Assembly: GCA_046153645.1 (NCBI GenBank)
Contig: JBJXGI010000056.1
Coordinates: 16,687-80,686 of the forward strand
From: Elusimicrobiota bacterium
GTDB taxonomy: Bacteria > Elusimicrobiota > Elusimicrobia > F11
Reading direction: 5' to 3'
Length of the DNA stretch: 64,000 bases
The position numbers and the translations under genes were made by a program. This document shows positions 22,657-53,753 of this stretch, piece after piece (the stretch's first letter is position 1; each line of letters starts with the position of its first letter). The notes below the pieces were generated by a model, which saw nothing but the letters and a program-made list of their open reading frames with translations, ran no database searches and was not told the DNA's origin.

Positions 22657-22713
22657 GTCTTCACCAGAATTTAATTTGACATGCGCAATATTTTTTTAGT
22701 ACTTTAGTCTGGA

Positions 22714-22851
22714 TTTGAAAATAACATAGGTGTTATCTTCAAAAAACAATGGCGTTCGAACCTTTCGGGTCGAATGCTTTTTTTTTGTCTTTTAATTGTG
22801 CCAATGAAGGCGCTCATCCACCAGGAGTGTGGGGTTGAGCGCTTTTTTTTT
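22714..22851 (+). promoter_or_regulatory. ANTAR-type antitermination leader with two intrinsic terminators
   Basis: Hexaloop hairpins ATAAC-ATAGGT-GTTAT (22721-22736), AAC-AATGGC-GTT (22745-22756), GCC-AATGAA-GGC (22800-22811), all with A1/G4. The last two overlap the 5' arms of terminators 22752-22786 and 22807-22851. TTGACA at 22676. Confidence 0.8.
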
Positions 22852-22872
22852 GTAATTACAGGGGAATAAAGG

Positions 22873-25308
22873 ATGGAACGGAAACATTTAGTTGTTATTG
22901 GAAATGGAATGGCTGGGATGGCCTGTCTTGACCAAATCCTCCAAAAAAAACCTTTTTTAACGATTACCGTTATAGGGGAAGAACCCCATTATAACTATAA
23001 CCGTATTCTTCTCTCCTCGGTTTTAGCAGGAGAAAAAGCCTTCGATGATATTTTCATTAATACCAAAGAGTGGTATGAACAAAATCAAATTGAGCTTCTT
23101 CTTAATACCAAAGTACTTGATGTTAATTCCAAACAAAAAACCATCACAACTTCAAACAATCAAATAATTCCTTATGACATGCTTTTGTTGGCAACGGGAA
23201 GTAACCCGTTCATTCCTCCGATTGAGGATGTTAAAAAAGAAGGTGTTTTCGTTTTTAGAAATATTTCGGATACACAAAGAATGATCGAAATGGCCAAACA
23301 ATCCAAAAAAGCGGTCGTGATTGGAGGGGGATTGTTGGGGTTGGAAGCAGCTCGCGGATTGCAATCACATGGACCTGAAGTGACGGTGGTTCATAACAGT
23401 GATGTCCTTATGAATGCCCAGTTAGATAAAGTGGGAAGTCAATTCTTAAAAAGAGAAATTGAAAAGATCGGGATTCAAATTTTTCTTGGAAAGGTGAGTG
23501 AGAAATTTTTAGGAAATGGAAAAGTAGAAGGGGTTCAATTTAAAGATGGCAGTCGATTAGAAGCCGATATGGTCGTCATTTCCTGTGGTATTCGCCCGAA
23601 TATTGAGTTAGGGGTTAAAGCGGGACTTGAGGTCAACAGAGGAATTTTGGTTAATGATTTTATGGAAACCAGCGATCCCTCTATTTTTGCCGTTGGTGAA
23701 TGTGTTGAGCATAGAGGGGTTACTTATGGTCTTGTTGCTCCTCTTTACGATCAAGGTCGAGTTTTAGCCAATACTCTCACCGGTGACAAAGGCCCCGTTT
23801 ATGAAGGCTCAACGCCAGCGGCAAAACTCAAAGTGATGGGTATTGAGCTTTTTTCAGCCGGCACCATGAATCCTTCCGGTGAAAATATTGATGCGATTAC
23901 TTATGAAGACCACATTGAAGGGCTCTACAAAAAAGTACTGCTAAAAAACAATGAAATTATTGGAACAATTCTTATTGGTGATTCAAAAGATGCCAATCGA
24001 TTTTTAGAGCGAATGAGAAAAAAAGAAAAGATTGGTCGAAAACATAACCTATTGTTTGAACTCCCTGCTGAAATCGGATCTAAAGACGATGTCATGGCCC
24101 GCCCTGATACCGATATTATTTGTGGTTGTATTGGTGTTTCCAAAGGGCAAATGATGGAAGCGGTTCGAGAAAAAGGGTGTAAAAGTGTATCTGATATGAA
24201 GGCTTGCACAAAAGCGACTTCTGGTTGTGGCACTTGTACGGGACTTGTTAAAGATATTTTAAAGGCCATGGTGGGCACAGAATTAAAAGAAGAAAAAAAA
24301 GAAACAGTCTGTGCTTGCATTCCCTTTTCTAAGGTACAACTAAGAACGATTATTCAAACTCAGAAACTAAAGTCAGTTCAAGATTTATTGGATATTTATG
24401 GCAATGGCACCGGTTGTTCATCTTGTAAACCGGCCTTAGCCTTTATTGTGGATGAAGCCCTTATGGGAGAACATGAAGAAGATCGATCAACAAGATATAT
24501 CAATGATCGAGTTCATGCGAATATTCAGAAAGACGGAACATTTTCCGTTATCCCCAGAATGAGAGGTGGCGTGACCTCTTCTGATGAATTACGAAAAATT
24601 GCTGATGCCGCAGATAAATATAAGGTCAAGATGGTGAAAGTCACTGGGAGTCAACGAATTGATTTATTGGGAGTGAAAAAAGAAGATCTTCCTAAGATGT
24701 GGGCTGATTTAGGAATGCCATCAGGGCACGCCTATGCGAAAGCGGTTCGAATGGTTAAGTCTTGTGTGGGCACCGATTTTTGTCGTTTTGGGACCCAAAA
24801 TTCTATTGAGACGGGAATCCATCTTGAGAAAATGTTGGAAGGTTTATACACCCCGGCCAAAGTGAAATTGGGAGTCGTTGGATGTCCGCGCAATTGCGCT
24901 GAGGCCACTGTTAAAGATATTGGGCTCGTTGGAATTGAGGGAGGGTGGCAAGTGGTCATTGGAGGGGCCGCGGGGAAAATAGTGCGAGAGGCGGATATCT
25001 TGTCAACTGTGCAAACCACGGATGACGCCTACGAAGCCGTTTGTTTGTTTTTTCAGTTTTATAGAGAAAATGGTGAATATTTAGAAAGAACTTACGATTT
25101 TGTTGAAAGAGTGGGTTTAAAAAAAATCAGGGAGGAAACCGTATTGGCCTCTTCGGAAAATAAAAAAGCATTGTTAGATCGGTTAGCGAAATCAAAAGAA
25201 AAAGTTGTGGATCCTTGGGCAGTAGAAGCGTCTCGTCCTATTCATCCAACTCAATTTAGTGATTTTGTTTTACCGAAAGACAAAGAGGCCTTGGTGAATG
25301 TGAAATGA
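22873..25308 (+). CDS. nirB: NAD(P)H-dependent assimilatory nitrite reductase large subunit
   Basis: VIGNGMAG, GGGLLGLE, two BFD-like Cys clusters, HANIQKDGT, KSCVG..FC, GCPRNC siroheme/FeS ligands. Confidence 0.96.
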   Translation: MERKHLVVIGNGMAGMACLDQILQKKPFLTITVIGEEPHYNYNRILLSSVLAGEKAFDDIFINTKEWYEQNQIELLLNTKVLDVNSKQKTITTSNNQIIPYDMLLLATGSNPFIPPIEDVKKEGVFVFRNISDTQRMIEMAKQSKKAVVIGGGLLGLEAARGLQSHGPEVTVVHNSDVLMNAQLDKVGSQFLKREIEKIGIQIFLGKVSEKFLGNGKVEGVQFKDGSRLEADMVVISCGIRPNIELGVKAGLEVNRGILVNDFMETSDPSIFAVGECVEHRGVTYGLVAPLYDQGRVLANTLTGDKGPVYEGSTPAAKLKVMGIELFSAGTMNPSGENIDAITYEDHIEGLYKKVLLKNNEIIGTILIGDSKDANRFLERMRKKEKIGRKHNLLFELPAEIGSKDDVMARPDTDIICGCIGVSKGQMMEAVREKGCKSVSDMKACTKATSGCGTCTGLVKDILKAMVGTELKEEKKETVCACIPFSKVQLRTIIQTQKLKSVQDLLDIYGNGTGCSSCKPALAFIVDEALMGEHEEDRSTRYINDRVHANIQKDGTFSVIPRMRGGVTSSDELRKIADAADKYKVKMVKVTGSQRIDLLGVKKEDLPKMWADLGMPSGHAYAKAVRMVKSCVGTDFCRFGTQNSIETGIHLEKMLEGLYTPAKVKLGVVGCPRNCAEATVKDIGLVGIEGGWQVVIGGAAGKIVREADILSTVQTTDDAYEAVCLFFQFYRENGEYLERTYDFVERVGLKKIREETVLASSENKKALLDRLAKSKEKVVDPWAVEASRPIHPTQFSDFVLPKDKEALVNVK

Positions 25309-26030
25309 GTGAAATAATAAATAAGAATATTCATTGGGTTCCTGTCGCTAATAAAAACTTAATTCCGAAAAACGAAGGGAGAAAAGTTATTTGGGGGAAA
25401 AAAAAGATCGCAATTTTTAATTTGGGGGATGAGTTTTTGGCTGTTGATAACCAATGCCCTCATAAACAAGGGCCATTGGCTGACGGAATTACAGCCGGAA
25501 AAGCGGTGTATTGCCCCCTTCATAATTGGAAAATAGATTTAAAAACGGGATGTACCTTGGCAGGGGGAGAAGGGAAAGTGAAATCCTATCCCGTCATGAT
25601 CAAGGGGTCTGATATTTACATCGGTTTTGAAACCGTGGAGAAGGATATTCAAATGAAAGAAATCTTGGCGATTATTCGACCTAATAAGTGGGGAGAAACC
25701 AAAAAAAAGTTGACCGAAATAGGTGTTAATGCCTTTACTCAAAGAAGAGTTTATGGAAGAGGAAAACAAAAGGGCCTGACCTATCGAGCCAATAAAAATG
25801 AAGGGCCCTCTTCTCAAACCGGGATTCAATTTATTCCTAAAAGAATGATTTTAATTGTTGTCCCTGAATCACAAGTTAAATTGGTTGTGAATGGTCTTAT
25901 TGAAGTAAATCAAACAGGGGCTATTGGAGACGGAAAGATTTTTATTTCTCAAATGAATGAGGTTATTTTAATTCGCACTGGTGAAAAAGAAAATCAAATA
26001 AAAGAGATTGAAGAAGAGGTGATGATATGA
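25305..26030 (+). CDS. nirD: Fusion: NirD-like Rieske subunit plus PII (NifI2-like) domain
   Basis: CPHKQGPL...CPLHNW Rieske motif, then in frame from Met117 (25653) MKEILAIIRPNK...GRGKQKG...PKRMI...TGAIGDGKIFI. Confidence 0.9.
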   Translation: MSEIINKNIHWVPVANKNLIPKNEGRKVIWGKKKIAIFNLGDEFLAVDNQCPHKQGPLADGITAGKAVYCPLHNWKIDLKTGCTLAGGEGKVKSYPVMIKGSDIYIGFETVEKDIQMKEILAIIRPNKWGETKKKLTEIGVNAFTQRRVYGRGKQKGLTYRANKNEGPSSQTGIQFIPKRMILIVVPESQVKLVVNGLIEVNQTGAIGDGKIFISQMNEVILIRTGEKENQIKEIEEEVMI

Positions 26031-26344
26031 AAATGATTCGAGCCATTGTAAGACCGGAAAAAGAAGAAGCCGTGGTCAAGTCACTAGATGAAGCAGGTTT
26101 TCCTTCCATTACCAAGTTTGATGTATTAGGGCGTGGAAAACAAAAAGGGATTCAAATTGCTAATTCCGTTTATGATGAACTGGCTAAAAGTTTTTTGATG
26201 TTAGTTGTCGATGATAGCGCACTTCCGAGAGCTGTAGAAGCCATTCAATCAGGAGCTCGCACGGGTAATTTCGGTGATGGGAAAATTTTTGTCACTGATG
26301 TTGCAGCCGCTTATACCATTCGTACTGGAAAAGAAGGACTTTAA
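26027..26344 (+). CDS. PII-family regulator, NifI1-like
   Basis: MKMIRAIVRPEK...GFPSITKFDVLGRGKQKG...YDELAK...TGNFGDGKIFV...YTIRTG; short T-loop. Confidence 0.9.
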   Translation: MKMIRAIVRPEKEEAVVKSLDEAGFPSITKFDVLGRGKQKGIQIANSVYDELAKSFLMLVVDDSALPRAVEAIQSGARTGNFGDGKIFVTDVAAAYTIRTGKEGL

Positions 26345-26361: not shown

Positions 26362-27678
26362 ATGCTGAAAGGTAAAAATCTGATCAGGGGGATTTGGTTT
26401 GCTTTCATTGTAGTGTCGTTGGGCGTTGTCCAAACGTGGGCTGATATCACCTTTAGCGGTGAATTCCGGCTTCGCCCCGAATATAAAAAAAATGCCGATT
26501 TTAATAAGGCAACCAAAGACACGCAATCATTTGTAGGTTCCAGATTACGTATTTCTGGGGCTGGTTTAGCGGCAGAAGATATTGCAGTTAAAGTTACTTT
26601 TCAAGATACACGTAATTGGGGTGAGGAACCAGGTTCTGGTGCGGTTAATGGCCTTACAGATAGTGGTGAGGCTATTGATATCCATGAAGGATTCGTTGAT
26701 TTTCAGAATTTTTTAAAAACGCCCTTTTCATTTCGAGCGGGAAGACAAGAATTGTCTTTTGGTGATCAAAGACTGATTGGGTCTTTTGGGTGGAATAATC
26801 AAGGCAGAGCCTTCGATGCTTTTCGATTGATGTATGTTGGAAACCAGTTTATGGTTGATGCGTGGACAGCCAAGAGAAAAGAAAATAATGCAACCACAGC
26901 GGGTGTTCCTTCTAACGATCGAGATTTTTCGGGTATATATGGGACAATGAAACCTGTTTTTCCTGGAGCTTTATTAGACGTCTATTTTCTTCATGACAGA
27001 GAAGGGGATACCACCGGTAATGCAGAGCCAAAAAATGTTTACACGTATGGACTGCGACTTTCTGGTAAAAATGGTTTCATCGATTACACGGTGGAAGCGC
27101 CATTTCAATTCGGACAGAATGGTACAGTTGTTGGCGTTTCATCTGATTCAGTTAAAATTTCGGCAAACGCATTGGCTGCTAAAGTCGGTTTTACAATCCC
27201 TGGAGATAAAGAAATAAGATTCGGGACTGAATATGATTATGCTTCTGGCGATGATAATTTGTCAGATACCAAAGCCAAAACATTCAATAATTTGTACCCC
27301 ACCAATCATCTTTTTTATGGATATATGGACTATCAAGGATGGAGAAATCTAAGTGCTTGGAATGCAAATTTAAGTTTCAAACCTCAAAGGCCTTGGTTCC
27401 TTTCAATTCATTACTGGGTTTTCAATTTAGCTGAGGAGAAAGATGGCTGGTATAACGCCGCTGGCACGGCTTCAGGTTCTTTACGTGCTGCCTCTAGTGC
27501 CAATACGGAAAAAAATATTGGGCAAGAAATAGATTTATTGGCTCGATTTACTCAAAGCTCTCGTGTTATTTGGGAGTTTGGTTATAGCCGTTTTTTTGCT
27601 GGAGACTTAATAGATCAAAGAGTTGCCAATGACTCTGCTTCTGACTGGGCATATGTTATGAGCACCATTAAATTTTAA
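26362..27678 (+). CDS. Alginate-export-family outer-membrane beta-barrel porin
   Basis: Signal peptide, GEFRLRPE, GRQEL.FGDQRLIG, FDA, ASGD, YPTNH, GQEIDL, terminal Phe. Confidence 0.8.
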   Translation: MLKGKNLIRGIWFAFIVVSLGVVQTWADITFSGEFRLRPEYKKNADFNKATKDTQSFVGSRLRISGAGLAAEDIAVKVTFQDTRNWGEEPGSGAVNGLTDSGEAIDIHEGFVDFQNFLKTPFSFRAGRQELSFGDQRLIGSFGWNNQGRAFDAFRLMYVGNQFMVDAWTAKRKENNATTAGVPSNDRDFSGIYGTMKPVFPGALLDVYFLHDREGDTTGNAEPKNVYTYGLRLSGKNGFIDYTVEAPFQFGQNGTVVGVSSDSVKISANALAAKVGFTIPGDKEIRFGTEYDYASGDDNLSDTKAKTFNNLYPTNHLFYGYMDYQGWRNLSAWNANLSFKPQRPWFLSIHYWVFNLAEEKDGWYNAAGTASGSLRAASSANTEKNIGQEIDLLARFTQSSRVIWEFGYSRFFAGDLIDQRVANDSASDWAYVMSTIKF

Positions 27679-27694: not shown

Positions 27695-29002
27695 ATGAAA
27701 GATTTAAATAAAAATAATGAAAATAAAAAAGAAGATTTGTTGACGAATTTAGATCAAGAAATTTCAAGAAGAAATTTTTTGAAAGGGGCTGGGGTATTAG
27801 CGGCTAGTTTAATGATCCCAAGCGTTTTTAAATCGATGATTCCAGGTGCTTATGCTTCTGATGCTCCGGAAACAACAACCATGCGTTTTGGAATTATTGC
27901 CTTAACAGATTGCGCTTCAATTGTTATGGCGCATGAATTGGGTTTATTTAAAAAATACGGAATTAATTCTGTTATTTCTAAAGAAGCGTCCTGGGCGGTT
28001 ATACGCGATAAATTGAATTTGGGAGAAAATCATGCCACACACATGTTATTAGGAATGCCCTATGCTTCTACGATGGGCCTCTTGGGTTCTCCCAAGCGAC
28101 CGATGGTCATTCCGTTGGTACTGAACCGAAATGGACAAGGCATCACACTTCAAAAAAAATATGCTGGAAAAGTAAAAAATCCAGCTGATTTAAAAACATT
28201 TGTTTACCAAGCTAAAATGGGGGGCAGCCCTCTCAACTTTGCTATGACGTTTCCTCCTGGAACTCATGCGATGTGGTTAAGATATTGGTTGGCTTCAGGA
28301 GGTATTCATCCCGATCGAGACGTGTCCTTAATTACAGTTCCTCCTCCACAAATGGTTCAGAATATGCGAATCGATAAAATGGATGGATACTGCGTGGGCG
28401 AACCATGGAATGGGCGAGCCATTTCTGATGGGATTGGGTTTACTGTGACGAGTTCTCAGAAAATCTGGAAAGATCATCCTGAAAAAGTTTTGGCTTTCAC
28501 TGAAGATTTTGCTCATAAAAACCCGAATTCTGTAAAAGCAGCCATGAAAGCGATTATAGAAGCAAGTCAATTTATAGACAAAATGGAAAACAGAGAAAAA
28601 GTAGCTGAAATAGTTTGTAAACCGCAATACATCAATTGCCCCAAAGAAGTGATTTTAGACCGACTTCAAGGAAAGTATAACTATGGAGATGGCAGTCCGA
28701 TCGAGCAAGACCCAAACTACATGACGTTTTTTGATCGAAATACCAATTTTCCATATAAATCACATGGGCTTTGGTTTATGAGTCAGTTTCGTCGATGGGG
28801 AATGGTCAAGGGGACGCCGGATTATAATTCGGTTATCAATAAGGTTCATCGACCTGATATTTTTAGGGAAGTAGCCAAAGAAATGAAGTTGTCTGTTCCA
28901 ACAGAAGATATGAAAAAAGAAACTTTATTTGATGGAAAAATTTTCGATCCTTCAAATCCTGAAGCTTACGCGAAAAGTTTTTCTATTCATAATTTGGCTT
29001 AA
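27695..29002 (+). CDS. nrtA: Nitrate/nitrite ABC transporter substrate-binding protein (NrtA/CmpA family), Tat signal
   Basis: SRRNFLK, GIIALTDCA, TFPPGTH, VPPPQMV, CVGEPWN, HPEKV. Confidence 0.9.
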   Translation: MKDLNKNNENKKEDLLTNLDQEISRRNFLKGAGVLAASLMIPSVFKSMIPGAYASDAPETTTMRFGIIALTDCASIVMAHELGLFKKYGINSVISKEASWAVIRDKLNLGENHATHMLLGMPYASTMGLLGSPKRPMVIPLVLNRNGQGITLQKKYAGKVKNPADLKTFVYQAKMGGSPLNFAMTFPPGTHAMWLRYWLASGGIHPDRDVSLITVPPPQMVQNMRIDKMDGYCVGEPWNGRAISDGIGFTVTSSQKIWKDHPEKVLAFTEDFAHKNPNSVKAAMKAIIEASQFIDKMENREKVAEIVCKPQYINCPKEVILDRLQGKYNYGDGSPIEQDPNYMTFFDRNTNFPYKSHGLWFMSQFRRWGMVKGTPDYNSVINKVHRPDIFREVAKEMKLSVPTEDMKKETLFDGKIFDPSNPEAYAKSFSIHNLA

Positions 29003-29012
29003 AGGAGGCAAT

Positions 29013-29786
29013 GTGACTAAAAAATTTGATTGGCCATCAGTCATTTTACCTTTCTGTGGAATAATTTTTATTCTTATTCTTTGGACAATGGTGAGTAAAA
29101 CGATAGCAAAAGACTTGCCCACACCTTGGGTGACATGGCAAGAAAGCAAAATATATATTCTCAATCCTTTTTTCAAGGAAGGAGAAATGAATCAAGGAAT
29201 GGGACGGTTGGCTTTTTACAGTCTTGTCAGGGTTGCAAAAGGGTTTACACTGGCTCTTATTTTGGCAACGCCTTTAGGTTTTTTAATTGGGCTTTCAAAA
29301 AAAATGTCTCAGGCTTTTGATCCGATTATCCAAGTTCTTAGACCTATTTCACCGCTGGCATGGTTGCCACTGGGTATGATTATTTTTCAAAAATCAGAAC
29401 CCGCCGGTATTTTTACTATTGCTGTTTGTGCGATGTGGCCAACGGTTTTAAATACGGCTGTTGGTGTCCGTCGAATTAATACAGATTATCTTAATGTTGG
29501 TCGTGTCTTAAAGTTATCCCCAACAAAAATGTTTTTTAAGATTATTATGCCGGCGACCATGCCTTATGTTTTTACCGGATATCGGTTAAGTTTGGGAATC
29601 GCTTGGCTTGTGATTGTGGCCAGTGAAATGTTAACGGGGTCTCCTGGTATTGGCGGATTTTTGTGGCAGGAATACAATGCTTTGATTTATTCCCATATTA
29701 TTTTGGCCATTATCACCATCGGTGTTATTGGTTTTATTTTAGATCGCATGATGGGTATGGTCGAAAAGAAATTTCAGGTAGGTTAA
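29013..29786 (+). CDS. nrtB: Nitrate ABC transporter permease
   Basis: GTG start after SD AAGGAGG; QVLRPISPLAWLP, GIAWLVIVASEM. Confidence 0.9.
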   Translation: MTKKFDWPSVILPFCGIIFILILWTMVSKTIAKDLPTPWVTWQESKIYILNPFFKEGEMNQGMGRLAFYSLVRVAKGFTLALILATPLGFLIGLSKKMSQAFDPIIQVLRPISPLAWLPLGMIIFQKSEPAGIFTIAVCAMWPTVLNTAVGVRRINTDYLNVGRVLKLSPTKMFFKIIMPATMPYVFTGYRLSLGIAWLVIVASEMLTGSPGIGGFLWQEYNALIYSHIILAIITIGVIGFILDRMMGMVEKKFQVG

Positions 29787-29794
29787 GAGAATTT

Positions 29795-30565
29795 ATGAGT
29801 TTTCTTGAAATTAAAAACGGTGCCAAAAGTTTCTCTTCTGAAAAAGGTGAGATTAATGTTTTAAAAGACATTAACCTTTCTATGGAGGAAGGTGAGTTTG
29901 TTTCGATTGTGGGTTATTCTGGTTCAGGAAAAACAACTTTGGTTTCTATGATTGCAGGGCTTATCCGGCCTGATCAAGGAAAAATAACTTTGGCTGGAAA
30001 AGAAATTGTTGCTCCTGGGCCAGATCGAGGCGTTATTTTTCAAAACTATTCTCTTTTGCCATGGATGAATGTTTATGAAAATGTTTTTTTGGCGGTTGAT
30101 GCGGTTTCTCAAAATCTCTCCCCAAAAGAAAAAAAAGAAAAAACAGAATCGTATATCAACTTAGTTAAGTTGGGTGCGGCGATGAGCAAAAAACCCAGTG
30201 AACTGAGTGGTGGCATGCGGCAACGGGTTTCTGTGGCGCGTGGATTAGCGATGGAGCCCAAAGTGTTACTTCTTGATGAGCCTTTTAGTGCGTTAGATGC
30301 TTTAACACGCTCTTCTTTGCAAGATGAACTTCAAAGAATTTGGACTGAAACCAAAAAAACCATCATCATGATCACAAACGATGTTGATGAGGCTATTTTA
30401 TTAGCGAATCGTATTTTCCCACTCACTAAAGGGCCCGGGGCCACTTTAGGTGATGAAATACCTGTTCATATTTCAAGACCACGGAGTACTCGAAAGCTGA
30501 GCTTAGAACCAGGTTATAAAGAAGTTAAAAAAAAGATTGTTGATTTTTTAATAAAAAATTTATGA
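29795..30565 (+). CDS. nrtC: Nitrate ABC transporter ATP-binding subunit (NrtC-like, no C-terminal regulatory domain)
   Basis: GYSGSGKT, FQNYSLLPW, LSGGMRQR, LLDEPF. Confidence 0.85.
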   Translation: MSFLEIKNGAKSFSSEKGEINVLKDINLSMEEGEFVSIVGYSGSGKTTLVSMIAGLIRPDQGKITLAGKEIVAPGPDRGVIFQNYSLLPWMNVYENVFLAVDAVSQNLSPKEKKEKTESYINLVKLGAAMSKKPSELSGGMRQRVSVARGLAMEPKVLLLDEPFSALDALTRSSLQDELQRIWTETKKTIIMITNDVDEAILLANRIFPLTKGPGATLGDEIPVHISRPRSTRKLSLEPGYKEVKKKIVDFLIKNL

Positions 30566-31404
30566 AAAAGATCTTAGAAATTTCTCAACTTGGTAAATCC
30601 TACCCCACTCCCAGTGGAGGAGAGGCTGTTATTGTTAAAAATTTTAATTTGGACATTCAAGAGGGTGAATTCGTTTCTATTTTGGGACATTCAGGCTGCG
30701 GAAAATCAACCGTTCTGTCTATTGTTATGGGGTTAAGCGAATTATCATATGGAGGTGTTATCCTCGGAGGACGAGAAATTGATGGCCCTGGAATAGACCG
30801 AGGCGTGGTTTTTCAAGCGGCCTGTCTTTTTCCGTGGTTTTCAGTCATTGAAAATATTCTTATTTCGATTGACCAGGTTCATAATTTAAAAACAAAAAAA
30901 GAAAAACGAGAGTTGGCCCAGTATTATTTAAAGTTGGTTGGATTGGAAGGCAGTGAGAACCGTTATCCCAATGAAATGTCGGCGGGGATGAGGCAACGAG
31001 TGGGAATTGCGCGCGCCTTTGCTATGGAGCCCAAAATTTTACTTTTAGATGAACCTTTTAGTTTGCTTGACGCTTTAACGCGGCTTGAACTTCAAAGCCA
31101 ATTAACTCGAATTTGGGAACAGGATAAAAAAACAGTGCTTATGGTGACTCATGACGTTGATGAAGCTTTGTTTTTGTCTGATCGAATTGTCATGATGACA
31201 TCAGGTCCGGCGGCGGGTATTGGAAAAATTATTTCTGTTCCGTTTGATCGCCCTCGCGATCAAGCTCAATTGTTTAATCACCCAGATTATTTTTGGATGA
31301 GAGATAGACTCACCAATTTTTTAGAAGATCAATCGCATCAAAAAAAAGATAGAGAAGCTTCCGGTGAAGAGCGAGTTAAGATGGAAGCTGTCGTTGATCA
31401 ATAG
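30562..31404 (+). CDS. nrtD: Nitrate ABC transporter ATP-binding subunit
   Basis: [30 protein letters not shown]. Confidence 0.85.
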
Positions 31405-31426: not shown

Positions 31427-31576
31427 ATGTTTGGAAATTTAGGAATGGGTGAATTGCTCATTATTTTTTTGATTGTTCTTCTGTTGTTCGGTTCGAAAAG
31501 ACTCCCTGATCTTGCCAAGGGAATAGGCCATGCCATAAAAGTATTTAAAGACGAAATAAATGGGATTCGAAAGTAA
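31427..31576 (+). CDS. tatA: Twin-arginine translocase TatA/E
   Basis: [46 protein letters not shown]. Confidence 0.93.
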
Positions 31577-32585
31577 TTCTTTCCAACCTCCTGTCGTAAC
31601 AACTGAAGATGGTTTTCGTCGAAGAGTTTCTTACTTAAGAATCTCACTAACGGATCGTTGTAATTTACGATGTCGTTATTGCATGCCAAAAGAGAAAATA
31701 TCTTTTTTTCCTGAAGATGAAATACTCACCAATGATGAATTGAAACGATTGATTCAAGTGTTTGCTTCTTTGGGAGTTACGAAAATACGTCTCACGGGGG
31801 GAGAGCCACTTTTAAGAAAAGGTTTAGAAGAGGTTCTCAGTTATATTTATCTCCAAGGAGTTAAAGATGTTTCCATGACAACCAATGGAATATTTTTGGC
31901 GCGTCGTTTGGAATCCCTTCAAGAGGCAGGATTAAAGAGAATTAATATTAGTTTAGATACTTTTCGTTTGGACCGATTTGAATTAATAACAACTTCTAGA
32001 AATATAAATAAAGTTATTGAGGGAATTCATAAATCCATTGAGATGGGTTTAAGCCCTGTCAAAATTAATATGGTTGTTATGAAGGGCTGGAATGATGACG
32101 AAATTCCAGATTTTGTTCGATTCGCTTATAATCATTTTGTTGAAGTTCGATTTTTAGAACTCATGCCCACCAAAAATACGTTCGAAGGAACGTCCCTGGT
32201 AACCAAAGACGCTTTTTTCCCTGTAGCATCTATCCGAACAGAAGTTGAAAAATATGTTCAGTTGGGTTTTGAAGATCCAATCGCAGGGGTCGCGCGGACC
32301 TATCCAATAAAAGGGGGGAAAGGAAAAATCGGGTTTGTGAGTCCTGTTTCAAATCATTTTTGTGGATCCTGTAATCGCATTCGTTTAACTTCGACGGGGG
32401 GGCTTAAAACCTGTCTTCATGGAAATGATGTTGTTGATTTGAAATCGTTATTACGAAAAGGATCCTCGAATGAAGATATTTCAAAAGCCATTAGGGCCGC
32501 TCTTTTTATTAAACCTCCTGAACATTTTATTCGTCCTGACCATTTTGTGAGCTCTTCTTTGCAAATGTCTCAAGTGGGCGGCTAA
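31560..32585 (+). CDS. moaA: GTP 3',8-cyclase
   Basis: [29 protein letters not shown]-terminal MSQVGG. Confidence 0.97.
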
Positions 32586-32588
32586 ACC

Positions 32589-34697
32589 GTGCCTGTCCGA
32601 GTTATTCCAGGAAATTTTAAAAAAGTAAGAACCCATTGTAATTTGTGCGCGATGCAATGTGGTTTTCAACTGTTGGTTGAACCTGAGAATAATCAAGTCA
32701 TTGGGGTGGAAGGGGATCCTGATTTTCCAACAACGCACGGACTCATGTGTGTAAAAGGGACCAATTCAACAAAACAAATTCATCACCAAGATAGAATATT
32801 AGCCCCTCTTATGCGGCCCCATCCTGAGGCCTCTTTTGCGCCCGTTTCTTGGAGTCGTGCCCTCGCTGAGTGCGCTGAAAAAATAAAGGCTATTCAGGAA
32901 AAATATGGGCTTGATAGTTTTGCTGTTTATGGAGGAGGCGCCTTAACCAATGAAACAATTTACCTTCTTTCTAAGTTTACCCGAGTTGTTTTAAAAACAC
33001 GGAACATCGATTACAATGGCCGGTTTTGTATGTCTTCGGCAGCGGCAGCTCAAAATAAAGTTTTTGGGGTTGACCGAGGAATGCCTTTCCCCGTGAGTGA
33101 TATTGCGAAGGCAAAATTTATTTTATTGGTGGGTGCCAATATTGCTGAATGTCTTCCTCCTATGATGGATGTTTTTAAAGAAGCACGTTCAAAAGGGGCG
33201 GTGGTTTTTTTAGTTGACCCTCGAAAAACAGATACCATGCGAGTTGCCGATAAACATCTTTGTATTGAACCGGGAACCGATATTGAATTTGCTAAAGCTG
33301 TATTACATGTGATGTTTAAAGAAAAGTGGGTGGATTATTCTTTTATAGAAACTCAAACGGAAAATTTTTCCCAATTAAAAAAATCAATGGAGTTATTTTC
33401 TTTAGAATCAGCTTCTCAGTTAACGGGCATTCCGGTGCAAGAGATAGAACTAACAGCCCGGCTCTTATTTCTCAGTGAGACTGCCATGATTTTATCTGCT
33501 CGTGGAGCTGAGCAACAATCAAAAGGGGTGGATACTGTTATTTCTTTGATCAATCTTATTTTGGTCGCAGGGAAAATAGGTGTTCCCGGAAGTGGTTTTG
33601 GAACTTTGACAGGACAAGGAAATGGTCAGGGGGGTAGAGAACATGGTCAAAAAGCAGACCAACTTCCCGGTTACCGCAAGATTGAAAATCCAAAACATCG
33701 AGAAGAGATAGCGAAAATTTGGCAAGTCAATCCTGCTGATTTGCCGGGAGCCGGTTTATCCGCTTATGAGCTATTAGATGCTATTGTTCGCAAAGAAATT
33801 AAAGGTTTATTTGTCATGGGGTCAAATCCCGTCATGTCCGCTCCTCAAGCCAAAGAGATAAAAAAAGCTTTTAAAGAATTAGAATTTTTGGCGGTCGTCG
33901 ATTTTTTTCCTTCAGAAACAGTTGATTTGGCGCAGGTCGTTTTACCCACCACCATGTGGGCAGAAGAAATGGGAACCACGACCAATTTAGAGGGAAGGGT
34001 TCTTTTGCGAGAGAAAGCCATTCAGGCGCCTCCTGAGGTGAAGCCTGATTGGAGAATTCTTTGTGAGTTAGCAAAACATCTGAACCATCCTCAGGGTTTT
34101 TTATTTGATTTGATTGAAAATGTTTTTGAGGAATTTACTCTCGCCACGAAGAATGGAATTGCTGATTATTCTGGAATTACCTACGACAAAATTAGAAAAG
34201 AAAAAGGGGTTCATTGGCCTTGTGTTTCAGAAGAAGATAGGGGTACTCCAAGGTTATTTTTAGATAAAAAGTCGTGGCATCCGAATAAAAAATTTGTTTT
34301 TCATGATGTTTCTTATCGCCCTATTGCGGAAAAGCCTGATTGTGAATTTCCTTATATTCTTACAACAGGACGTTTATTGCACCAATATCTGACGGGAAAC
34401 CAAACGCATAGAATTCCGGAATTGGAAGTTTTTAATAAAGAACCAAAAGCAGAAATACCAACTGAAGTAGCAGCCAAGCTTTCTCTTCAATCGGGAGACC
34501 TTGTTCGCCTCATTACCCGACGAGGATCTGTTGAGATAAAAGTTAAAGTGATGGAGGGAATGAATTCTCTGACTGTTTTCGTTCCGTTTCATTGGGGAGG
34601 GGAACAATGTATTAACCAATTGACGAATCCGGCATTAGACCCGGTTTCACGAATGCCTGAATTCAAAGCCTGCGCGGTAAAAATTGAAAAAATATGA
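32589..34697 (+). CDS. nasA: Assimilatory nitrate reductase catalytic subunit (Mo-bisPGD)
   Basis: THCNLCAMQC...C FeS motif, NGRFCMSSA, GQGNGQGGREHG, DPVSRMPEFK; operon context. Confidence 0.9.
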   Translation: MPVRVIPGNFKKVRTHCNLCAMQCGFQLLVEPENNQVIGVEGDPDFPTTHGLMCVKGTNSTKQIHHQDRILAPLMRPHPEASFAPVSWSRALAECAEKIKAIQEKYGLDSFAVYGGGALTNETIYLLSKFTRVVLKTRNIDYNGRFCMSSAAAAQNKVFGVDRGMPFPVSDIAKAKFILLVGANIAECLPPMMDVFKEARSKGAVVFLVDPRKTDTMRVADKHLCIEPGTDIEFAKAVLHVMFKEKWVDYSFIETQTENFSQLKKSMELFSLESASQLTGIPVQEIELTARLLFLSETAMILSARGAEQQSKGVDTVISLINLILVAGKIGVPGSGFGTLTGQGNGQGGREHGQKADQLPGYRKIENPKHREEIAKIWQVNPADLPGAGLSAYELLDAIVRKEIKGLFVMGSNPVMSAPQAKEIKKAFKELEFLAVVDFFPSETVDLAQVVLPTTMWAEEMGTTTNLEGRVLLREKAIQAPPEVKPDWRILCELAKHLNHPQGFLFDLIENVFEEFTLATKNGIADYSGITYDKIRKEKGVHWPCVSEEDRGTPRLFLDKKSWHPNKKFVFHDVSYRPIAEKPDCEFPYILTTGRLLHQYLTGNQTHRIPELEVFNKEPKAEIPTEVAAKLSLQSGDLVRLITRRGSVEIKVKVMEGMNSLTVFVPFHWGGEQCINQLTNPALDPVSRMPEFKACAVKIEKI

Positions 34698-35176
34698 AAC
34701 GGCCATCATTATCGCATGTGGATGTTCAAGGTAAAATAAAAATGGTTGATGTGAGTGGGAAGTCAACAACCATGCGTGAAGCTTCTGCCTATGGGGAAGT
34801 TCACTTGAAAGCTCAAACCATTAAATTGATCAAAAACGGGCTTATGCGTAAAGGTGATGTTTTATCGACGGCTCGTTTGGCCGGAATTATGGCGGGAAAA
34901 AGGACGGATGAACTTATTCCCTTATGTCACTCTTTACAAATTGAGTCTTTAGATGTTTCTATAAAAGTTTTAACTCGTTCCATTCAAATTCAATCGAGAG
35001 TTGTCTGTGAGGGAAAAACAGGCGTTGAAATGGAAGCTCTCACGGCTGTGAGTGTTGCCGCCTTAACCATTTATGATATGGCCAAGGCCGTTGATAAAAA
35101 TATTGTCATTGGGCCCATTTATCTTTCCGAAAAAAAAGGCGGGAAATCAGGGCATTTTAAAAGAGGAAAAATATAA
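34694..35176 (+). CDS. moaC: Cyclic pyranopterin monophosphate synthase
   Basis: MVDVSGK, KGDVL, LIPLCH, TGVEMEAL, YDMAKAVD. Confidence 0.97.
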   Translation: MKRPSLSHVDVQGKIKMVDVSGKSTTMREASAYGEVHLKAQTIKLIKNGLMRKGDVLSTARLAGIMAGKRTDELIPLCHSLQIESLDVSIKVLTRSIQIQSRVVCEGKTGVEMEALTAVSVAALTIYDMAKAVDKNIVIGPIYLSEKKGGKSGHFKRGKI

Positions 35177-35415
35177 TGGTTCGTTGTCTTTTTTTTGCGC
35201 AGTGCTCGGACTGGATGAAGGTGAAAGAATTAGAAATTCCACTTTTTTCTTCAATTTCGATTCAGCAACTATTAGAAAAAGATTTACGATTCATTCAATT
35301 AAACAATCGGAAAAGTTTTCTGAAGGTAGCCATTAATCAAGTGATGGTTGATTTTCAAACGGAGGTTAAAAATGGAGATGAAATTGCCTTTATGCCCCCT
35401 TTCAGTGGCGGATAA
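35176..35415 (+). CDS. moaD: Molybdopterin synthase sulfur carrier
   Basis: LFFA, VAINQ, GDEIAFMPPFSGG C-terminus. Confidence 0.93.
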   Translation: MVRCLFFAQCSDWMKVKELEIPLFSSISIQQLLEKDLRFIQLNNRKSFLKVAINQVMVDFQTEVKNGDEIAFMPPFSGG

Positions 35416-35797
35416 AATAAAGCGGATAGTAAATGATCCTTTGAATCTTGACGATCTGATGCCACAGGTTTTTCATCGTGAGAAAGGCGCTGTTGTTACT
35501 TTTTCAGGAACGATTCGAGATACAGAGGAAGGGAAAGCCATTCGAGGTATTTTTTATGAAGCTTATGCAGAAATGGCTGAAAAAGAATTGGAAAAAATAA
35601 TTTTCAAAACCCAAGACAATTTAAATGTTTTAGTTGAAATAAAACATAAGGTCGGTTGGGTCAAAGTGGGAGAAGCCAGTTTGTTGGTTGCTTGTGCGGG
35701 TGTTCACCGCAAAGAAGCTTTTCTCGCGTGTGCAGAGGTTGTTGATCAAATTAAACAAAATGTTCCTATTTGGAAGGCGAGGTTTGATTTTTTATGA
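35405..35797 (+). CDS. moaE: Molybdopterin synthase catalytic subunit (start uncertain)
   Basis: GAVVTFSGTIR, YEAY.EMA, HRKEAF, IK..VPIWK. Confidence 0.93.
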   Translation: MADKIKRIVNDPLNLDDLMPQVFHREKGAVVTFSGTIRDTEEGKAIRGIFYEAYAEMAEKELEKIIFKTQDNLNVLVEIKHKVGWVKVGEASLLVACAGVHRKEAFLACAEVVDQIKQNVPIWKARFDFL

Positions 35798-36273
35798 AGG
35801 TAGGTATCTTAACGATTAGTGATCGATCTTTTAATCATATTCGCCCAGATGAGGGCGGGCCGGCTTTAGCCAGTATTATTCATGAAAAAAAATGGGTCAT
35901 TATCGCTCAGGAAATTATTCCTGATGAACAATCAGAAATTAAAAAGTGTTTGATTCATTGGGCTGATCAAAAACATATCGATTTAATTCTCACAACAGGA
36001 GGGACGGGCCTTGGTCCGAGAGATGTTACCCCTGAGGCCACAATTGAGGTTTTAGAGAAACAATTGCCAGGATTGGTTGAGTTGATGAGAAGAGAGGGGT
36101 TAAAAGAAACCCCTTTTTCCGTATTGTCTCGCGCGCTGGCCGGAATAAGAGGGGAAAGCATAATCATCAACTTTCCAGGGAACCCTGAGGGAGCAAAAAA
36201 ATCGTTAAGGTTAATTTTGCCCTTGCTTGAACATGCGCACCAAATGATTTTAGGTCATGATCACACCAAATGA
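35794..36273 (+). CDS. mogA: Molybdopterin adenylyltransferase (MogA/MoaB family)
   Basis: ILTISD, TTGGTGLGPRDVTPEA, LSRA.AG, NFPGNP. Confidence 0.9.
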   Translation: MKVGILTISDRSFNHIRPDEGGPALASIIHEKKWVIIAQEIIPDEQSEIKKCLIHWADQKHIDLILTTGGTGLGPRDVTPEATIEVLEKQLPGLVELMRREGLKETPFSVLSRALAGIRGESIIINFPGNPEGAKKSLRLILPLLEHAHQMILGHDHTK

Positions 36274-37483
36274 AGCTTTAAAAATAATTTTAGAGAACAC
36301 GGAGCCTTTATCTGAAGAGAAAATTTCTTTGGAAAAAAGTTATGGTCGTGTTTTATCGCGAGATATTTGGGCTGTTGAGAATTTGCCCTCTTTTGATAAT
36401 TCTGCCATGGATGGTTTTGCCGTTCAGTCGAACAGTTTGTCAGGGGCCTCAGAAACCTCTCCGATTGTTTTACCTGTTCAATCTGTTTCAAAAGCGGGGA
36501 CATCTTCTCCCCTTTCCTTAAAAGAAAAACATGCCATTCGAATTATGACCGGGGCTCCCATTCCACTGGGAGCTGATGCCATTGCCATTAAAGAAACCAC
36601 TGATTCTCAGTCCTCAGACGAAGTTCGATTCTTTTATCCTGCCACTGGTGGGGATCATATTCGCAAAATGGGAGAAGACGTCAAGAAGGATGATTTATTA
36701 CTTAAAAAAGGAACTTCTTTAAGGTCGTATGAAATTTCTTTGTTGGCGGCTCAAGGAATAACACAGTTTTATGTGATTGGTTTGCCTCAAGTCTGTGTTA
36801 TTTCTACGGGAGATGAGTTGGTTTCCCCTTCGTCTGCGATCTCTTATGGGCAGATACGCAATTCGAATGGTCCAGCGATATCCTCTTCGTTAGCGCATTG
36901 GGGGGTTGAGGCTATTGAATGTGAAATCGTCCCTGATAATTCAAAAAAGTTAGAAGAGGTTTTGCGGAAAAAACTTTCTAAAAATGATCTGTTCATTATT
37001 TCTGGTGGAGTTTCTGTGGGAGATTTTGATTTCACGAAAGAAACATTAGAGAAAATGGGTTTCCAAATTCTTTTTTGGAAAGCGGCCATAAAACCAGGAA
37101 AACCACTTCTGTTTGCTAAAAAAATGGATTCCGAAAGTCCAAAATATGTTTTTGGTTTACCTGGGAACCCGGTGTCGGCCTTGGTTTGTTTAGAAGAATT
37201 TGTTCGTGTAGCTCTTGAAAATTTAAAAGGTAAAAAGCCCACTTATCCCAGCTATCATTTGAAAGGAAATGTGACAAATTCTTATGTTAAACCCATGAAC
37301 CGTCAGCAGTATATTTTTTGTCAGGTGACTGAGTTAGAGAATCAATTTCAGATTGATATTATTCGCCCTCAAGGTGCGGCCATGATGGGAATGGCCACTC
37401 GAGCCAATGCACTTGCACTCGCTCCCATTGGAATTTCTCAGATAAAACCAGGTGATTTTTTGAATTTTCGCTGGCTTAAATAA
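36257..37483 (+). CDS. moeA: Molybdopterin molybdotransferase
   Basis: FDNSAMDGFA, IMTGA, STGDEL, SGGVSVG, KPGKP, GLPGNP. Confidence 0.96.
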   Translation: MITPNEALKIILENTEPLSEEKISLEKSYGRVLSRDIWAVENLPSFDNSAMDGFAVQSNSLSGASETSPIVLPVQSVSKAGTSSPLSLKEKHAIRIMTGAPIPLGADAIAIKETTDSQSSDEVRFFYPATGGDHIRKMGEDVKKDDLLLKKGTSLRSYEISLLAAQGITQFYVIGLPQVCVISTGDELVSPSSAISYGQIRNSNGPAISSSLAHWGVEAIECEIVPDNSKKLEEVLRKKLSKNDLFIISGGVSVGDFDFTKETLEKMGFQILFWKAAIKPGKPLLFAKKMDSESPKYVFGLPGNPVSALVCLEEFVRVALENLKGKKPTYPSYHLKGNVTNSYVKPMNRQQYIFCQVTELENQFQIDIIRPQGAAMMGMATRANALALAPIGISQIKPGDFLNFRWLK

Positions 37484-38094
37484 TGAAAGAGTTTACCGGT
37501 GTTATTTTAGCGGGGGGAAGAAGTCGACGGTTTGGCTCTCAAAAAGCTTTGGCTCCTTGGGGAGAGGAGACAGTGATAGAAACTCTGGCGCACACGTTAT
37601 GTTCATTGACCCCTCATGTCATGGTGGTTGGAAAAGAAAAATGGAAGCTTGCTGGTTTAAAAAAAATCCGAATAATTGAAGATCATTTTCAGGATTTTCA
37701 TGCCTTAGGTGGGATTGTTACGGCACTCAGAGAAGCGCCAACGAATAAAGTATTTATTGTTAGTTGTGATATTCCTCTTCTTGAAATCAATCTCATTGAA
37801 TTACTTCTTAAAAATTGTTCTGAGTCATTGGCCACGATTCCCATCTGGGATCAAAACATTCAGCCGCTTTGCGGACTGTATTCTAAAAAGATTCTTCCCT
37901 TTCTTGAGCAAGCTTTAACGAACAATCATCATAAACTACAGGAAATTTTAACGGCTCTCCACGTCCAGTTTGTGCCAGAAATAGAATTGAAACATAATGG
38001 GGTCACACGTTGGAGTTTTTTTGATCTCGATACTCAAGAAGAATACGAATATGCAAAAAACAATTTTAAAAAAGAAATTATTTCCTCTCGGTGA
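37483..38094 (+). CDS. mobA: Molybdenum cofactor guanylyltransferase
   Basis: ILAGGRSRRFG..K, LGGI..AL, CDIP, QPLCGLY. Confidence 0.92.
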   Translation: MKEFTGVILAGGRSRRFGSQKALAPWGEETVIETLAHTLCSLTPHVMVVGKEKWKLAGLKKIRIIEDHFQDFHALGGIVTALREAPTNKVFIVSCDIPLLEINLIELLLKNCSESLATIPIWDQNIQPLCGLYSKKILPFLEQALTNNHHKLQEILTALHVQFVPEIELKHNGVTRWSFFDLDTQEEYEYAKNNFKKEIISSR

Positions 38095-39052
38095 TTTGAT
38101 CGGGGCTTTTGGAGATGTGGGAACGTTTGTTCCTCTATTTTCAAGTCTTGTTTTGGTTGTTGGTTTAAACCCTTTTCCTACGTTGTTTTGCGCTGGCTTT
38201 CTTTATGTGGCGGCAGCGATTTTTTTTAAGGTTCCCATTCCCGTTCAACCCTTAAAAACCATGGCGGCTTTGGTGATTGCCTCTCAATTTCCACTCCCAG
38301 TCGTCAAAGCGGCTGGTTTATTGATGGGTTTTGTATTAATTCTTGTCTCTTTGACCCGTGGTATTGAATGGGCTCAATTTTTGTTCCCGCCAGTGATCAT
38401 TAAAGGGGTTCAGTTTGGAGCGGGTCTCATCTTGATTAAAACCGGCATCACTATGTTTTTCTCTTTTACTATGGAGGTCCCTTCCGTTTTAAGGGCGGAT
38501 TATTTCCCTCAAGGTGAAGACTTTCTGAAAGCTTTTTTTGCCTTGGTTTTGCCGCAACTTCCCTTAACACTTGGAAATTCTCTCTTCGCCACCACGGATC
38601 TTTCTAAAGAATATTATGGAGAAAAAGCTCATCGGGTTTCGGTTCGTAATTTGGGCTTATCTTTGGGATGGGCCAATATTATAACGGGTTTCTTGGGTGG
38701 TTTTCCTCTGTGTCATGGATCTGGAGGGTTAACCGCACATCACCGATTTGGGGCTCGATCTTATAAATCAACATTTTTTTCAGGGATCCTATTTCTGTTT
38801 TTAGCCTTTTTTTCTTTGAAATATGGAATTGAATACCTAAAACATATCCCGACCTGGTTCTTGGGTGGTATGGTGATATACATCGGAATTTATCATGCGT
38901 TATTGCTAAAAAGTTTGAAGGCAAAAAAAGAACTGGCCGTTTTGATGGGGGTTTTAGGATTGTGGTCAGGCAATCTGGCACTTTCTCTCCTTATTGGAAT
39001 TTTCGTGTTATTGATGAGCCAAATTTATTCTAAATATTTTTCAGTGGCCTAG
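38051..39052 (+). CDS. MOT1-type molybdate transporter
   Basis: GAFGDVGTFVP, PIPVQPLK, PQLPLTLGNS, PLCHGSGGL..H.RFGAR; last gene of Moco cluster. Confidence 0.85.
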   Translation: MQKTILKKKLFPLGDLIGAFGDVGTFVPLFSSLVLVVGLNPFPTLFCAGFLYVAAAIFFKVPIPVQPLKTMAALVIASQFPLPVVKAAGLLMGFVLILVSLTRGIEWAQFLFPPVIIKGVQFGAGLILIKTGITMFFSFTMEVPSVLRADYFPQGEDFLKAFFALVLPQLPLTLGNSLFATTDLSKEYYGEKAHRVSVRNLGLSLGWANIITGFLGGFPLCHGSGGLTAHHRFGARSYKSTFFSGILFLFLAFFSLKYGIEYLKHIPTWFLGGMVIYIGIYHALLLKSLKAKKELAVLMGVLGLWSGNLALSLLIGIFVLLMSQIYSKYFSVA

Positions 39053-49227: not shown

Positions 49228-49304
<77 letters not shown>

Positions 49305-49357
49305 TTTAAAACATAGCTTAAGAGCACCAGGGAAAACTTAAGTCAGCTTAGAATCTC

Positions 49358-53732: not shown

Positions 53733-53753
53733 TTTAAATCTAAGGAGAATGAG

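Follow-up and report, generated by a model that had tools for sequence, protein, structure and literature searches.

A NifI-type pair of PII proteins in a nitrate/nitrite-assimilation operon of an Elusimicrobiota bacterium, with the NifI2-like member fused to the Rieske protein NirD

PII proteins of the NifI type are described, in the accessible parts of the reports on them, as a nitrogenase-specific switch that is confined to anaerobic diazotrophs. According to these texts, a 2:1 heterotrimer of NifI1 and NifI2 (NifI1,2) in the ADP state occupies the docking site of NifH on NifDK and is released by MgATP and 2-oxoglutarate. In the GlnK-AmtB system, as far as the available descriptions go, a PII trimer with extended T-loops blocks its target in the ADP state and 2-oxoglutarate/MgATP frees it. 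Cyanobacterial GlnB exerts a 2-oxoglutarate-dependent post-translational control over nitrate assimilation, through the NrtC and NrtD subunits of the NrtABCD transporter and through nitrate reductase. In Paracoccus, finally, NasG passes electrons from NasB to NasC, as stated in the part of the source at hand. Here we describe a pair of NifI-type PII genes in a nitrate/nitrite-assimilation (nas) operon of an Elusimicrobiota bacterium (assembly GCA_046153645.1, contig JBJXGI010000056.1, positions 16,687 to 80,686). This stretch of 64,000 nucleotides, called the window throughout, is part of the contig numbered C18 in a genome of 2.63 Mb, 105 contigs and 99.7% completeness. The NifI2-like protein of the pair is fused to NirD and the NifI1-like protein is encoded directly behind it. 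A first-pass annotation made from the sequence of the window alone had recognized the pair; it had missed that NifI pairs in nitrate/nitrite clusters are a much larger family, of which the fusion represents one form. It knew of no description of such a system, and the literature covered, mostly without subscription journals, yielded no account of nas clusters with NifI-type PIIs or of NirD joined to a PII.

The reading frame from 25305 to 26030 on the plus strand runs without internal stop and encodes 241 residues, tethering the NifI2-like partner to NirD in a single polypeptide as the first-pass annotation had proposed. Its product consists of a Rieske NirD/NasG-like domain (Pfam Rieske/Rieske_2, residues 10-106), a linker of 10 residues and a NifI2-like PII domain (residues 117-241, from position 25653), of which residues 117-227 match the P-II family with 80 bits (PF00543, cut-off 25). 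The NCBIfam model nirD_assim_sml (TIGR02378) is passed as a borderline case with 76.2 against a cut-off of 74.65. The gene is embedded between overlapping neighbors: its start shares the four bases ATGA with the stop of nirB (22873..25308, plus strand), which encodes the 811-residue large subunit of NAD(P)H nitrite reductase (TIGR02374, 887.7 bits, cut-off 578; domains Pyr_redox_2, Fer2_BFD, NIR_SIR_ferr and NIR_SIR), and its stop shares ATGA with the ATG of the second PII gene (26027..26344, plus strand; 105 residues; P-II, 88.6 bits), an overlap already noted in the first pass. The putative ligands of the Rieske [2Fe-2S] cluster, C51, H53, C70 and H73, are invariant in all eight fused proteins aligned. 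AlphaFold2, applied to the fusion alone with an eight-row alignment, gave a mean predicted local distance difference test score (pLDDT) of 66.4, with a confident NirD domain (block means 73-89), a moderate PII domain and values below 50 for the T-loop (residues 151-176) and the tail; the model is uninformative as to mechanism.

Could such a fusion be an assembly or frameshift artefact, and the PIIs functionless remnants of a lost nif cluster? Only the prior that contigs of metagenome-assembled genomes (MAGs) can hold errors speaks for this idea, which we regard as scarcely credible. When 5.8 billion proteins were searched with a word index, the fusion had 97 matches, and seven of these, apart from the window protein itself, combine Rieske and P-II domains as well, at 53-73% identity. 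Aligned with the window protein they show 79 invariant columns over both domains and a shared junction, GFETxEKxIPMKE; since the same fusion with a conserved junction occurs in seven other proteins, it is not an assembly artefact. Moreover, three of the fused genes lie in loci with the same operon as the window (L012, L092 and L093), and positions 25630-25652 are spanned with no difference, and hence no stop codon, by metagenome contigs of three runs from a single biofilter study, albeit these contigs are not independent because the runs may be the source samples. The nas clade of PII proteins described below is, in addition, large and conserved. The NirD::PII fusion is thus genuine. When 1.84 billion cluster representatives were searched exhaustively with HMMER, 8168 of them matched at E-values up to 0.001; among the 15 long or multi-stretch proteins that were checked with Pfam out of 150 listed matches, P0007 represents the window's own cluster and P0234, at 44% identity, is the only further Rieske-PII cluster. 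In a collection of species genomes, a PII gene directly follows nirD in three of the 80 kept loci with a NirD relative. In one of them, from a MAG labelled Elusimicrobia (L012), the two are fused, and in the other two, labelled Planctomycetia (L013) and Omnitrophota (L028), separate genes encode NirD, a PII of 117-119 residues and a PII of 105 residues. Altogether the order nirB-nirD-PIIa-PIIb, with PIIa for the NifI2-like and PIIb for the NifI1-like protein, occurs with separate genes in three loci (L013, L028 and L107) and with the fusion in L012, L092, L093 and the window, so that the first-pass annotation's call for Rieske-PII proteins and nirB-linked NifI pairs elsewhere was answered on both counts. 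Four matches to the fused protein (P0268, P0276, P0282 and P0340) carry two or three tandem P-II domains in one polypeptide and may be fused PII pairs.

The first-pass annotation had also suggested that an internal start could yield free NifI2. A Shine-Dalgarno-like GGAGAAGGA is indeed present at 25636-25644, 8 nucleotides 5' of the codon for Met117 (25653). Among the four fused genes compared, only that of the window has such a motif, and those of L012, L092 and L093 do not. The motif may reflect no more than the codons for Glu-Lys-Asp, and a free NifI2-like protein from the internal start, while possible, finds no comparative support.

Which type of PII do the two proteins represent? Among all chains of the PDB, the 105-residue protein matches best 9p1x_H (105 residues; E-value 1.7e-31, 105 of 105 residues aligned without gap), with GlnB-1 next at 1.9e-23. 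For the fused PII domain the best match is 9p1x_G (125 residues; 7.4e-29), ahead of a GlnB/GlnK-type protein at 5.2e-21. The cross matches to the respective other chain are far weaker, 3e-14 to chain G and 1.2e-11 to chain H. The entry 9P1X is the NifDK-NifI1,2 supercomplex of Methanosarcina acetivorans, whose heterotrimers each consist of two copies of NifI1 and one of NifI2, according to the accessible text of its report, and as 12 H and 6 G chains fit a 2:1 heterotrimer, chain H is NifI1 and chain G NifI2. The same text describes NifI2 as having a T-loop that is longer and a C-terminus that is extended compared to NifI1. Correspondingly, the fused PII domain comprises 125 residues with a tail of 15 residues and a T-loop about 9 residues longer than that of the 105-residue protein. 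Both were said to lack the uridylylation T-loop of GlnB/GlnK, and alignments bear this out in terms of length: relative to GlnB-type PII the loop is 4 residues shorter in the 105-residue protein and 5 residues longer in the fused domain. Both proteins miss the GlnB/GlnK equivalogs (NF008111, 74.9 and 61.4 bits against 202; NF007946, 62.7 and 49.3 against 181), and both contain the motif GRGKQKG, as had been read from the sequence. The alignments of nas-linked proteins show little or no variation at G35, R36, G37, Q39 and G41, at a lysine following the T-loop, at GDGK and at the R-T(-G) of the C-terminus, and these columns (GRGxQ with Gln39, the post-T-loop Lys, GDGK and R-T-G) line up with the presumed ligand-binding positions of PII. 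NifI proteins retain the residues for ADP, ATP and 2-oxoglutarate, according to the part of the source available (PMC12439982). By sequence comparison, then, the fused PII is NifI2-like and the 105-residue PII NifI1-like, in agreement with the first reading of the pair.

The pair is not an isolated case. A metagenome scan with an alignment of four nas-linked 105-residue proteins and two peptide patterns was evaluated for the 80 most similar loci (56-89% identity), whose neighboring genes were classed by BLAST to references, with 71 representative open reading frames (ORFs) confirmed by Pfam. These closest NifI1-like loci comprise 52 with the arrangement NifH-NifI1-NifI2-NifD(-K), 22 in a context of nitrate/nitrite assimilation and 6 that could not be assigned, a ratio that is not a natural frequency, as the loci were chosen by two peptide patterns and are the best 80 among the matches listed. 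The nas loci have several layouts: NirB-NirD::PIIa-PIIb, fused or unfused; PIIa-NirA-PIIb(-NasC), with a siroheme NirA of two modules and roughly 525 residues; PIIa-NirA::Rieske-PIIb-NasC; and a few others. The third layout involves siroheme NirA-type reductases of 650-661 residues with a C-terminal NirD-like Rieske domain, flanked by NifI2-like and NifI1-like genes (L128 and L131, both 4019-6004, and L136, 725-2677). In every nas locus the NifI2-like gene precedes the NifI1-like gene, whereas all 52 nif loci have the order NifH-NifI1-NifI2, so that the reversal observed in the window in the first pass extends to the whole group. Exact-sequence look-ups placed nas-linked members in MAGs labelled Saganbacteria/WOR-1, Elusimicrobia and SAR202, under the public names 'P-II family nitrogen regulator' or, wrongly, 'nitrogen fixation protein NifD'. 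The latter name is attached in public MAG records to the 105-residue NifI1-like PIIs P0123, P0182, P0203 and P0218, and at least two of the PIIs so named (those of L095 and L120) sit in nas and not in nif clusters.

Phylogenetic analysis supports a distinct branch. In a quick IQ-TREE reconstruction of 175 PII rows, 74 fall into a NifI2-type clade (support in the Shimodaira-Hasegawa-like approximate likelihood ratio test, SH-aLRT, 99) and 85 into a NifI1-type clade (98), leaving a GlnK/GlnB-like group of 16. For more careful trees of 105-121 columns only 20 and 26 nif rows were kept after thinning at 85% identity, 8 GlnK/GlnB-like rows served as outgroup, and rooting was on amtB-linked and GlnB-like PIIs. 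In the NifI1-type clade (100/100) the window protein groups with all 26 nas rows and 5 unassigned rows in a single subclade, 32 rows in total (92/88), whose sister (87/77) is a nif subclade, and in the NifI2-type clade (100/99) the window protein, 22 nas rows and 2 unassigned rows form one subclade of 25 (89/88), again sister (84/76) to a nif subclade. The latter comes largely from the same loci in both trees (L151, L169, L137, L167, L132, L166, L146, L168, L147 and L158 are shared). The simplest reading of this congruence is that the two genes were recruited together from a nif lineage, and co-recruitment of the pair is what the trees look like. Furthermore, the four fused genes form one clade in both trees (99/94 and 100/99), which suggests that the fusion arose once. 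No alignment column separates nas from nif subclades in the sense that each has its own residue with a conservation of 80% or more; only tendencies are seen. The placement of both PIIs in NifI clades, apart from the GlnB/GlnK rows of the small outgroup, is what the first-pass annotation had expected of a phylogeny.

The host of the pair lacks nitrogenase. The window contains no nif genes, as had been noticed before, and the same holds for component 1 in the genome as a whole, where PF00148 gave no match at 99.7% completeness; for NifH, PF00142 gave only three weak matches of P-loop proteins (19-26 bits). In nine genomes with NifI pairs of this kind that were examined, no PF00148 match exceeds the cut-off. 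Elsewhere in the window genome, on contigs C20 and C85, lie two ordinary amtB-glnK pairs, and a GlnD uridylyltransferase domain was not found in this 99.7%-complete genome. A fifth gene of the PII family (113 residues; P-II, 59.9 bits) overlaps, within 61981-63245 of the window, the end of a preceding gene for an sbtA-type bicarbonate transporter (Sbt_1, 392 bits) and is presumably sbtB; a weak sixth candidate is located at C76:31371-31640.

What do such pairs act on, if not on nitrogenase? The neighborhoods offer a first answer. When the five unassigned loci that fall into the nas clade are added to the 22 nas loci, a nitrite reductase (Nir) gene is fused or adjacent to a PII gene in 19 of these 27 and two genes away in one more, and of the seven loci without visible Nir five end within 400 bases upstream. 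Nir is therewith the most constant neighbor (20/27), ahead of NasC (11/27), a transporter (10/27) and a GAF-ANTAR regulator (8/27). Among 40 relatives of the window genome (11 of the same family, 29 of the same class), five encode a NifI1-like protein at 60-66% identity, the best matches of the others reaching at most 47%. All five have NIR_SIR-family reductases somewhere in the genome; two of them, class relatives (G017 and G027), show the order PIIa-MFS-NirA-PIIb-(Fe-S/DmsC protein)-NasC-like-MobA-MoaA, with MFS for a major facilitator superfamily transporter, and in a further one the locus is cut. The Fe-S/DmsC protein between the NifI1-like gene and the NasC-like molybdoenzyme (L183, 3525-5201, in G017; L184, 3271-4947, in G027) has 558 residues with 4Fe-4S dicluster domains and a DmsC-like membrane anchor, which hints that electrons enter nitrate reduction by a membrane-linked route.

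We consider it on balance probable, by analogy with NifI1,2, that the NifI2-type PII on NirD and the NifI1-type PII, as members of a distinct NifI branch, serve nitrate/nitrite assimilation instead of nitrogenase by a gating that depends on 2-oxoglutarate and ATP. We infer the formation of a heterotrimer, its response to ligands, the inhibitory direction and the site of action as follows. The NifI1-like and NifI2-like proteins would assemble in a ratio of 2:1 and bind ADP or ATP and 2-oxoglutarate; given the conserved GRGxQ, post-T-loop Lys, GDGK and R-T(-G) columns, the same ligand logic as in NifI1,2 is to be expected. At low 2-oxoglutarate, that is nitrogen sufficiency, contact of the T-loops with the nitrite reductase would prevent electrons from being delivered, by the logic with which NifI1,2 sits on the NifH docking site of NifDK, and at high 2-oxoglutarate with MgATP the PII heterotrimer would let go. 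The fusion would keep the sensor permanently on NirB-NirD in a 1:1 ratio with NirD, and the gated step could be the delivery of electrons inside the NirB-NirD(-NasC) complex. Since NirD keeps the four Rieske ligands like NasG of Paracoccus, the switch could gate nitrate and nitrite reduction together. The first-pass annotation had inferred a comparable function, in which ammonium and 2-oxoglutarate would switch off nitrate/nitrite assimilation after translation. A more far-reaching version, which may well hold but which we put forward only tentatively, is that the nas branch of NifI, hitherto unnamed and co-recruited as a pair from a nif lineage, in non-diazotrophic and mostly uncultured bacteria (with the labels Omnitrophota-like, Elusimicrobia, Saganbacteria and SAR202), gates electrons to siroheme nitrite reductase and NasC according to 2-oxoglutarate and energy charge.

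Additional indications come from other fusions of the NifI2-like protein. P0240 (554 residues) combines an N-terminal FAD/NADH module, 44% identical to residues 2-399 of the window NirB, with a C-terminal nas-type PIIa. Taken together, PIIa is fused to the Rieske subunit in two clusters, to an NADH-FAD module once and to a transporter ATPase once, and all these independent fusion partners are parts of nitrate/nitrite assimilation. Siroheme Nir as constant neighbor, the majority of fusions being to electron-input modules and the retention of the Rieske ligands favor gating of electron delivery over other sites of action.

Several observations, nevertheless, weigh against this assignment of function. 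If nitrite reductase alone were inhibited, toxic nitrite would build up, so that merely switching off NirBD may be too narrow a concept. The nas subclades and their sister relations are moderately supported (84-92), the alignments are short, the outgroup counts only eight rows, and the nif label denotes gene context and not experimentally studied NifI proteins. In two class or family relatives (G004 and G034) the pair lies away from Nir, in G034 next to Tol-Pal/NifU-like genes, and two loci of identical sequence (L152 and L160) extend for more than 5.5 kb to each side without Nir, the pair being flanked by a GAF-ANTAR regulator and MoeA. Lastly, the transporter ATPase fusion just mentioned, P0353 (255 residues, end cut), consists of a nas-type PIIa, a linker of about 90 residues and an ATP-binding cassette (ABC) ATPase whose sequence is 39% identical to the NrtC-like protein of the window; by its sequence it indicates that one lineage or more may have the transporter as target, and the transporter is therefore a real alternative or additional target.

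From here it is a small step to the proposal that the pair mainly controls uptake of nitrate and nitrite through NrtABCD, in the way of cyanobacterial GlnB, which binds NrtC/NrtD, the NirD fusion serving only to co-localize the sensor with the pathway. Besides P0353, this proposal can draw on the NrtABCD-type transporter encoded in the operon of the window, 1.3 kb downstream, and on PDB 8wm7, which appears among the PII matches under the bare name 'Nitrogen regulatory protein P-II' and which we take to be the NrtBCD-PII complex. The type of transporter is, however, inconstant, being ABC in the window, MFS in many nas loci and of the formate/nitrite transporter (FNT) family in L120, and transporters are seen in half as many nas-clade loci as Nir (10/27 versus 20/27). 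Moreover, three fusions to redox modules (two Rieske clusters and one NirB FAD module) stand against a single one to an ATPase, in which the contig end cuts the protein and the 90-residue linker is putative. We therefore hold uptake as the main target to be unlikely.

The GAF-ANTAR neighbors and the terminator-like leader of nirB also make a transcriptional role possible, in which the pair would be a 2-oxoglutarate sensor for gene expression, for example through a GAF-ANTAR antiterminator acting on the leader hairpins. The leader (22700..22872, plus strand) forms three hairpins, of which the second and third have U-runs behind them in terminator-like fashion, and is more stable than any of 200 shuffled sequences (0/200 equally stable; z-score -3.97); antitermination control at these hairpins is possible on the grounds of sequence and fold. 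The window holds no ANTAR gene, but the genome encodes one ANTAR-domain protein, on another contig (C33). GAF-ANTAR genes adjoin nirB in relatives. As mentioned, they occur in 8 of the 27 nas-clade loci and in L152 and L160 provide the only nas-type neighbor besides MoeA. Conversely, among the 15 proteins checked PIIa is fused to enzyme or transporter modules and never to a regulator, and every characterized NifI acts on an enzyme, as far as the accessible reports describe them. A role in expression as the main function thus seems quite improbable to us. We assign a similarly small probability to a positive or structural role of the pair, be it as activator, as assembly or stabilizing factor or as stand-by store for nitrite reductase. 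It could be imagined that a permanent tether is ill suited to an inhibitor that binds and lets go, and NifI1,2 is described, in the available portion of the literature, as assembling nitrogenase into supercomplexes of higher order in which the enzyme is preserved. Yet the tether is not required, as the unfused genes of L013, L028 and L107 demonstrate, and all characterized NifI effects in these sources are inhibitory at low 2-oxoglutarate. Gating of electron delivery to nitrite reductase hence remains our preferred reading of the pair.

The genes following the pair complete the picture. Directly downstream, all on the plus strand, are encoded an outer-membrane porin of the Alginate_exp family (26362..27678; PF13372, 200.8 bits), presumed from its position to be the entry route of nitrate and nitrite, and the NrtABCD-type ABC nitrate/nitrite transporter (27695..31404) with a binding protein (NMT1_2, 307.9 bits) carrying a twin-arginine translocation (TAT) signal, a permease (BPD_transp_1) and two ATPases (ABC_tran in both). 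These are followed by moaA (31560..32585; Radical_SAM and Mob_synth_C) and by a gene for a nasC-type catalytic subunit of assimilatory nitrate reductase without a reductase domain of its own (32589..34697; 702 residues), which has Molybdopterin, Molydop_binding and Fe4S4 domains and matches best NF047855 with 852.9 bits, under the cut-off of 1100. Molybdenum cofactor (MoCo) genes assigned by Pfam, namely moaC, moaE, a MoCF_biosynth gene of the mog/moaB type, moeA and mobA, and a gene for a MOT1-type molybdate transporter conclude the series (34694..39052). From nirB via nirD::PII, the second PII gene, porin, nrtABCD, moaA and nasC to the MoCo genes this is one long nitrate/nitrite-assimilation operon. 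The possibility that the nas block is a horizontal island was rejected, as no tRNA gene is nearby and the GC content is flat at 0.38-0.41.

Other parts of the window show features of their own. Just 5' of the operon, 21060-22599 contains an HTH_3 gene overlapping a DUF6036 nucleotidyltransferase gene, resembling a toxin-antitoxin pair, and a gene for a 104-residue SWIB/MDM2-domain protein. Further upstream an ORF of 1486 residues (16508-20968) is otherwise uncharacterized apart from a sub-threshold match to the ChaN/Tiki haem-binding family (22.1 bits, cut-off 27.7). The region 49228-61292, which starts with a tRNA-Met gene (49228-49304), is probably an integrated element. Most of its ORFs belong to no family; it also encodes a DNA polymerase of family A, a methyltransferase of the MT-A70 family, an integrase of phage type and a helicase similar to PIF1.

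The locus and its relatives present a NifI pair in genomes devoid of nitrogenase, wired and several times fused to nitrate/nitrite assimilation. If the proposed gating holds true, post-translational control of nitrite reductase by nitrogen status would extend well beyond cyanobacteria and siroheme enzymes would be among the PII targets. In the more far-reaching version, an assimilatory nitrite reductase would for the first time be seen under direct control by PII, and the principle by which NifI blocks the docking site of an electron donor would prove portable between metalloenzymes. The natural NirD::PII fusion constitutes a ready-made stoichiometric complex for biochemistry and structural analysis, and the nas-linked pair as such is widespread, unannotated and directly testable. 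On the practical side, the misnaming of NifI1-like PIIs as NifD could inflate the presumed number of diazotrophs.

How, then, does the pair compare to the known systems? With NifI1 and NifI2 it has in common the adjacent PII genes, one for a protein of 105 residues with short T-loop, the other for a longer protein with extended T-loop and C-terminal tail, the motifs GRGKQKG and GDGKIF, and identities of about 54% and 53% to NifI1 and NifI2 of M. acetivorans (counted by hand from HMMER midlines). It differs by the missing nitrogenase, the nas operon, the NifI2-like gene in first place, the fusion to NirD and a subclade of its own, all of which argues that its target is not NifDK; and whereas NifI genes lie between nifH and nifD, the neighbors here are nirB on one side and porin and nrt genes on the other. 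By sequence, pair architecture and phylogeny the pair thus belongs to the NifI family, and it stands outside the functional definition of that family, which comprises linkage to nif, NifDK as target and the gene order. The N-terminal part of the fusion resembles NasG and NirD in matching nirD_assim_sml, in the overlap of its start with nirB and in the CxH...CxxH ligands. In contrast to the fusion, NasG and NirD have no reported PII domain, and 77 of the 80 kept genome loci have no PII gene after nirD. GlnK-AmtB differs in its gene linkage: the pair of the window is not linked to amtB, and the two amtB-glnK pairs of the genome are found on other contigs. Comparable in terms of the pathway is, by analogy, the cyanobacterial PII control, with which the locus shares an NrtABCD-type transporter and the tie between PII and nitrate/nitrite assimilation. 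Unlike the canonical homotrimeric GlnB of cyanobacteria, which is encoded elsewhere in the genome, the window has a NifI-type pair within the operon itself, one member of which is fused to the Rieske subunit.

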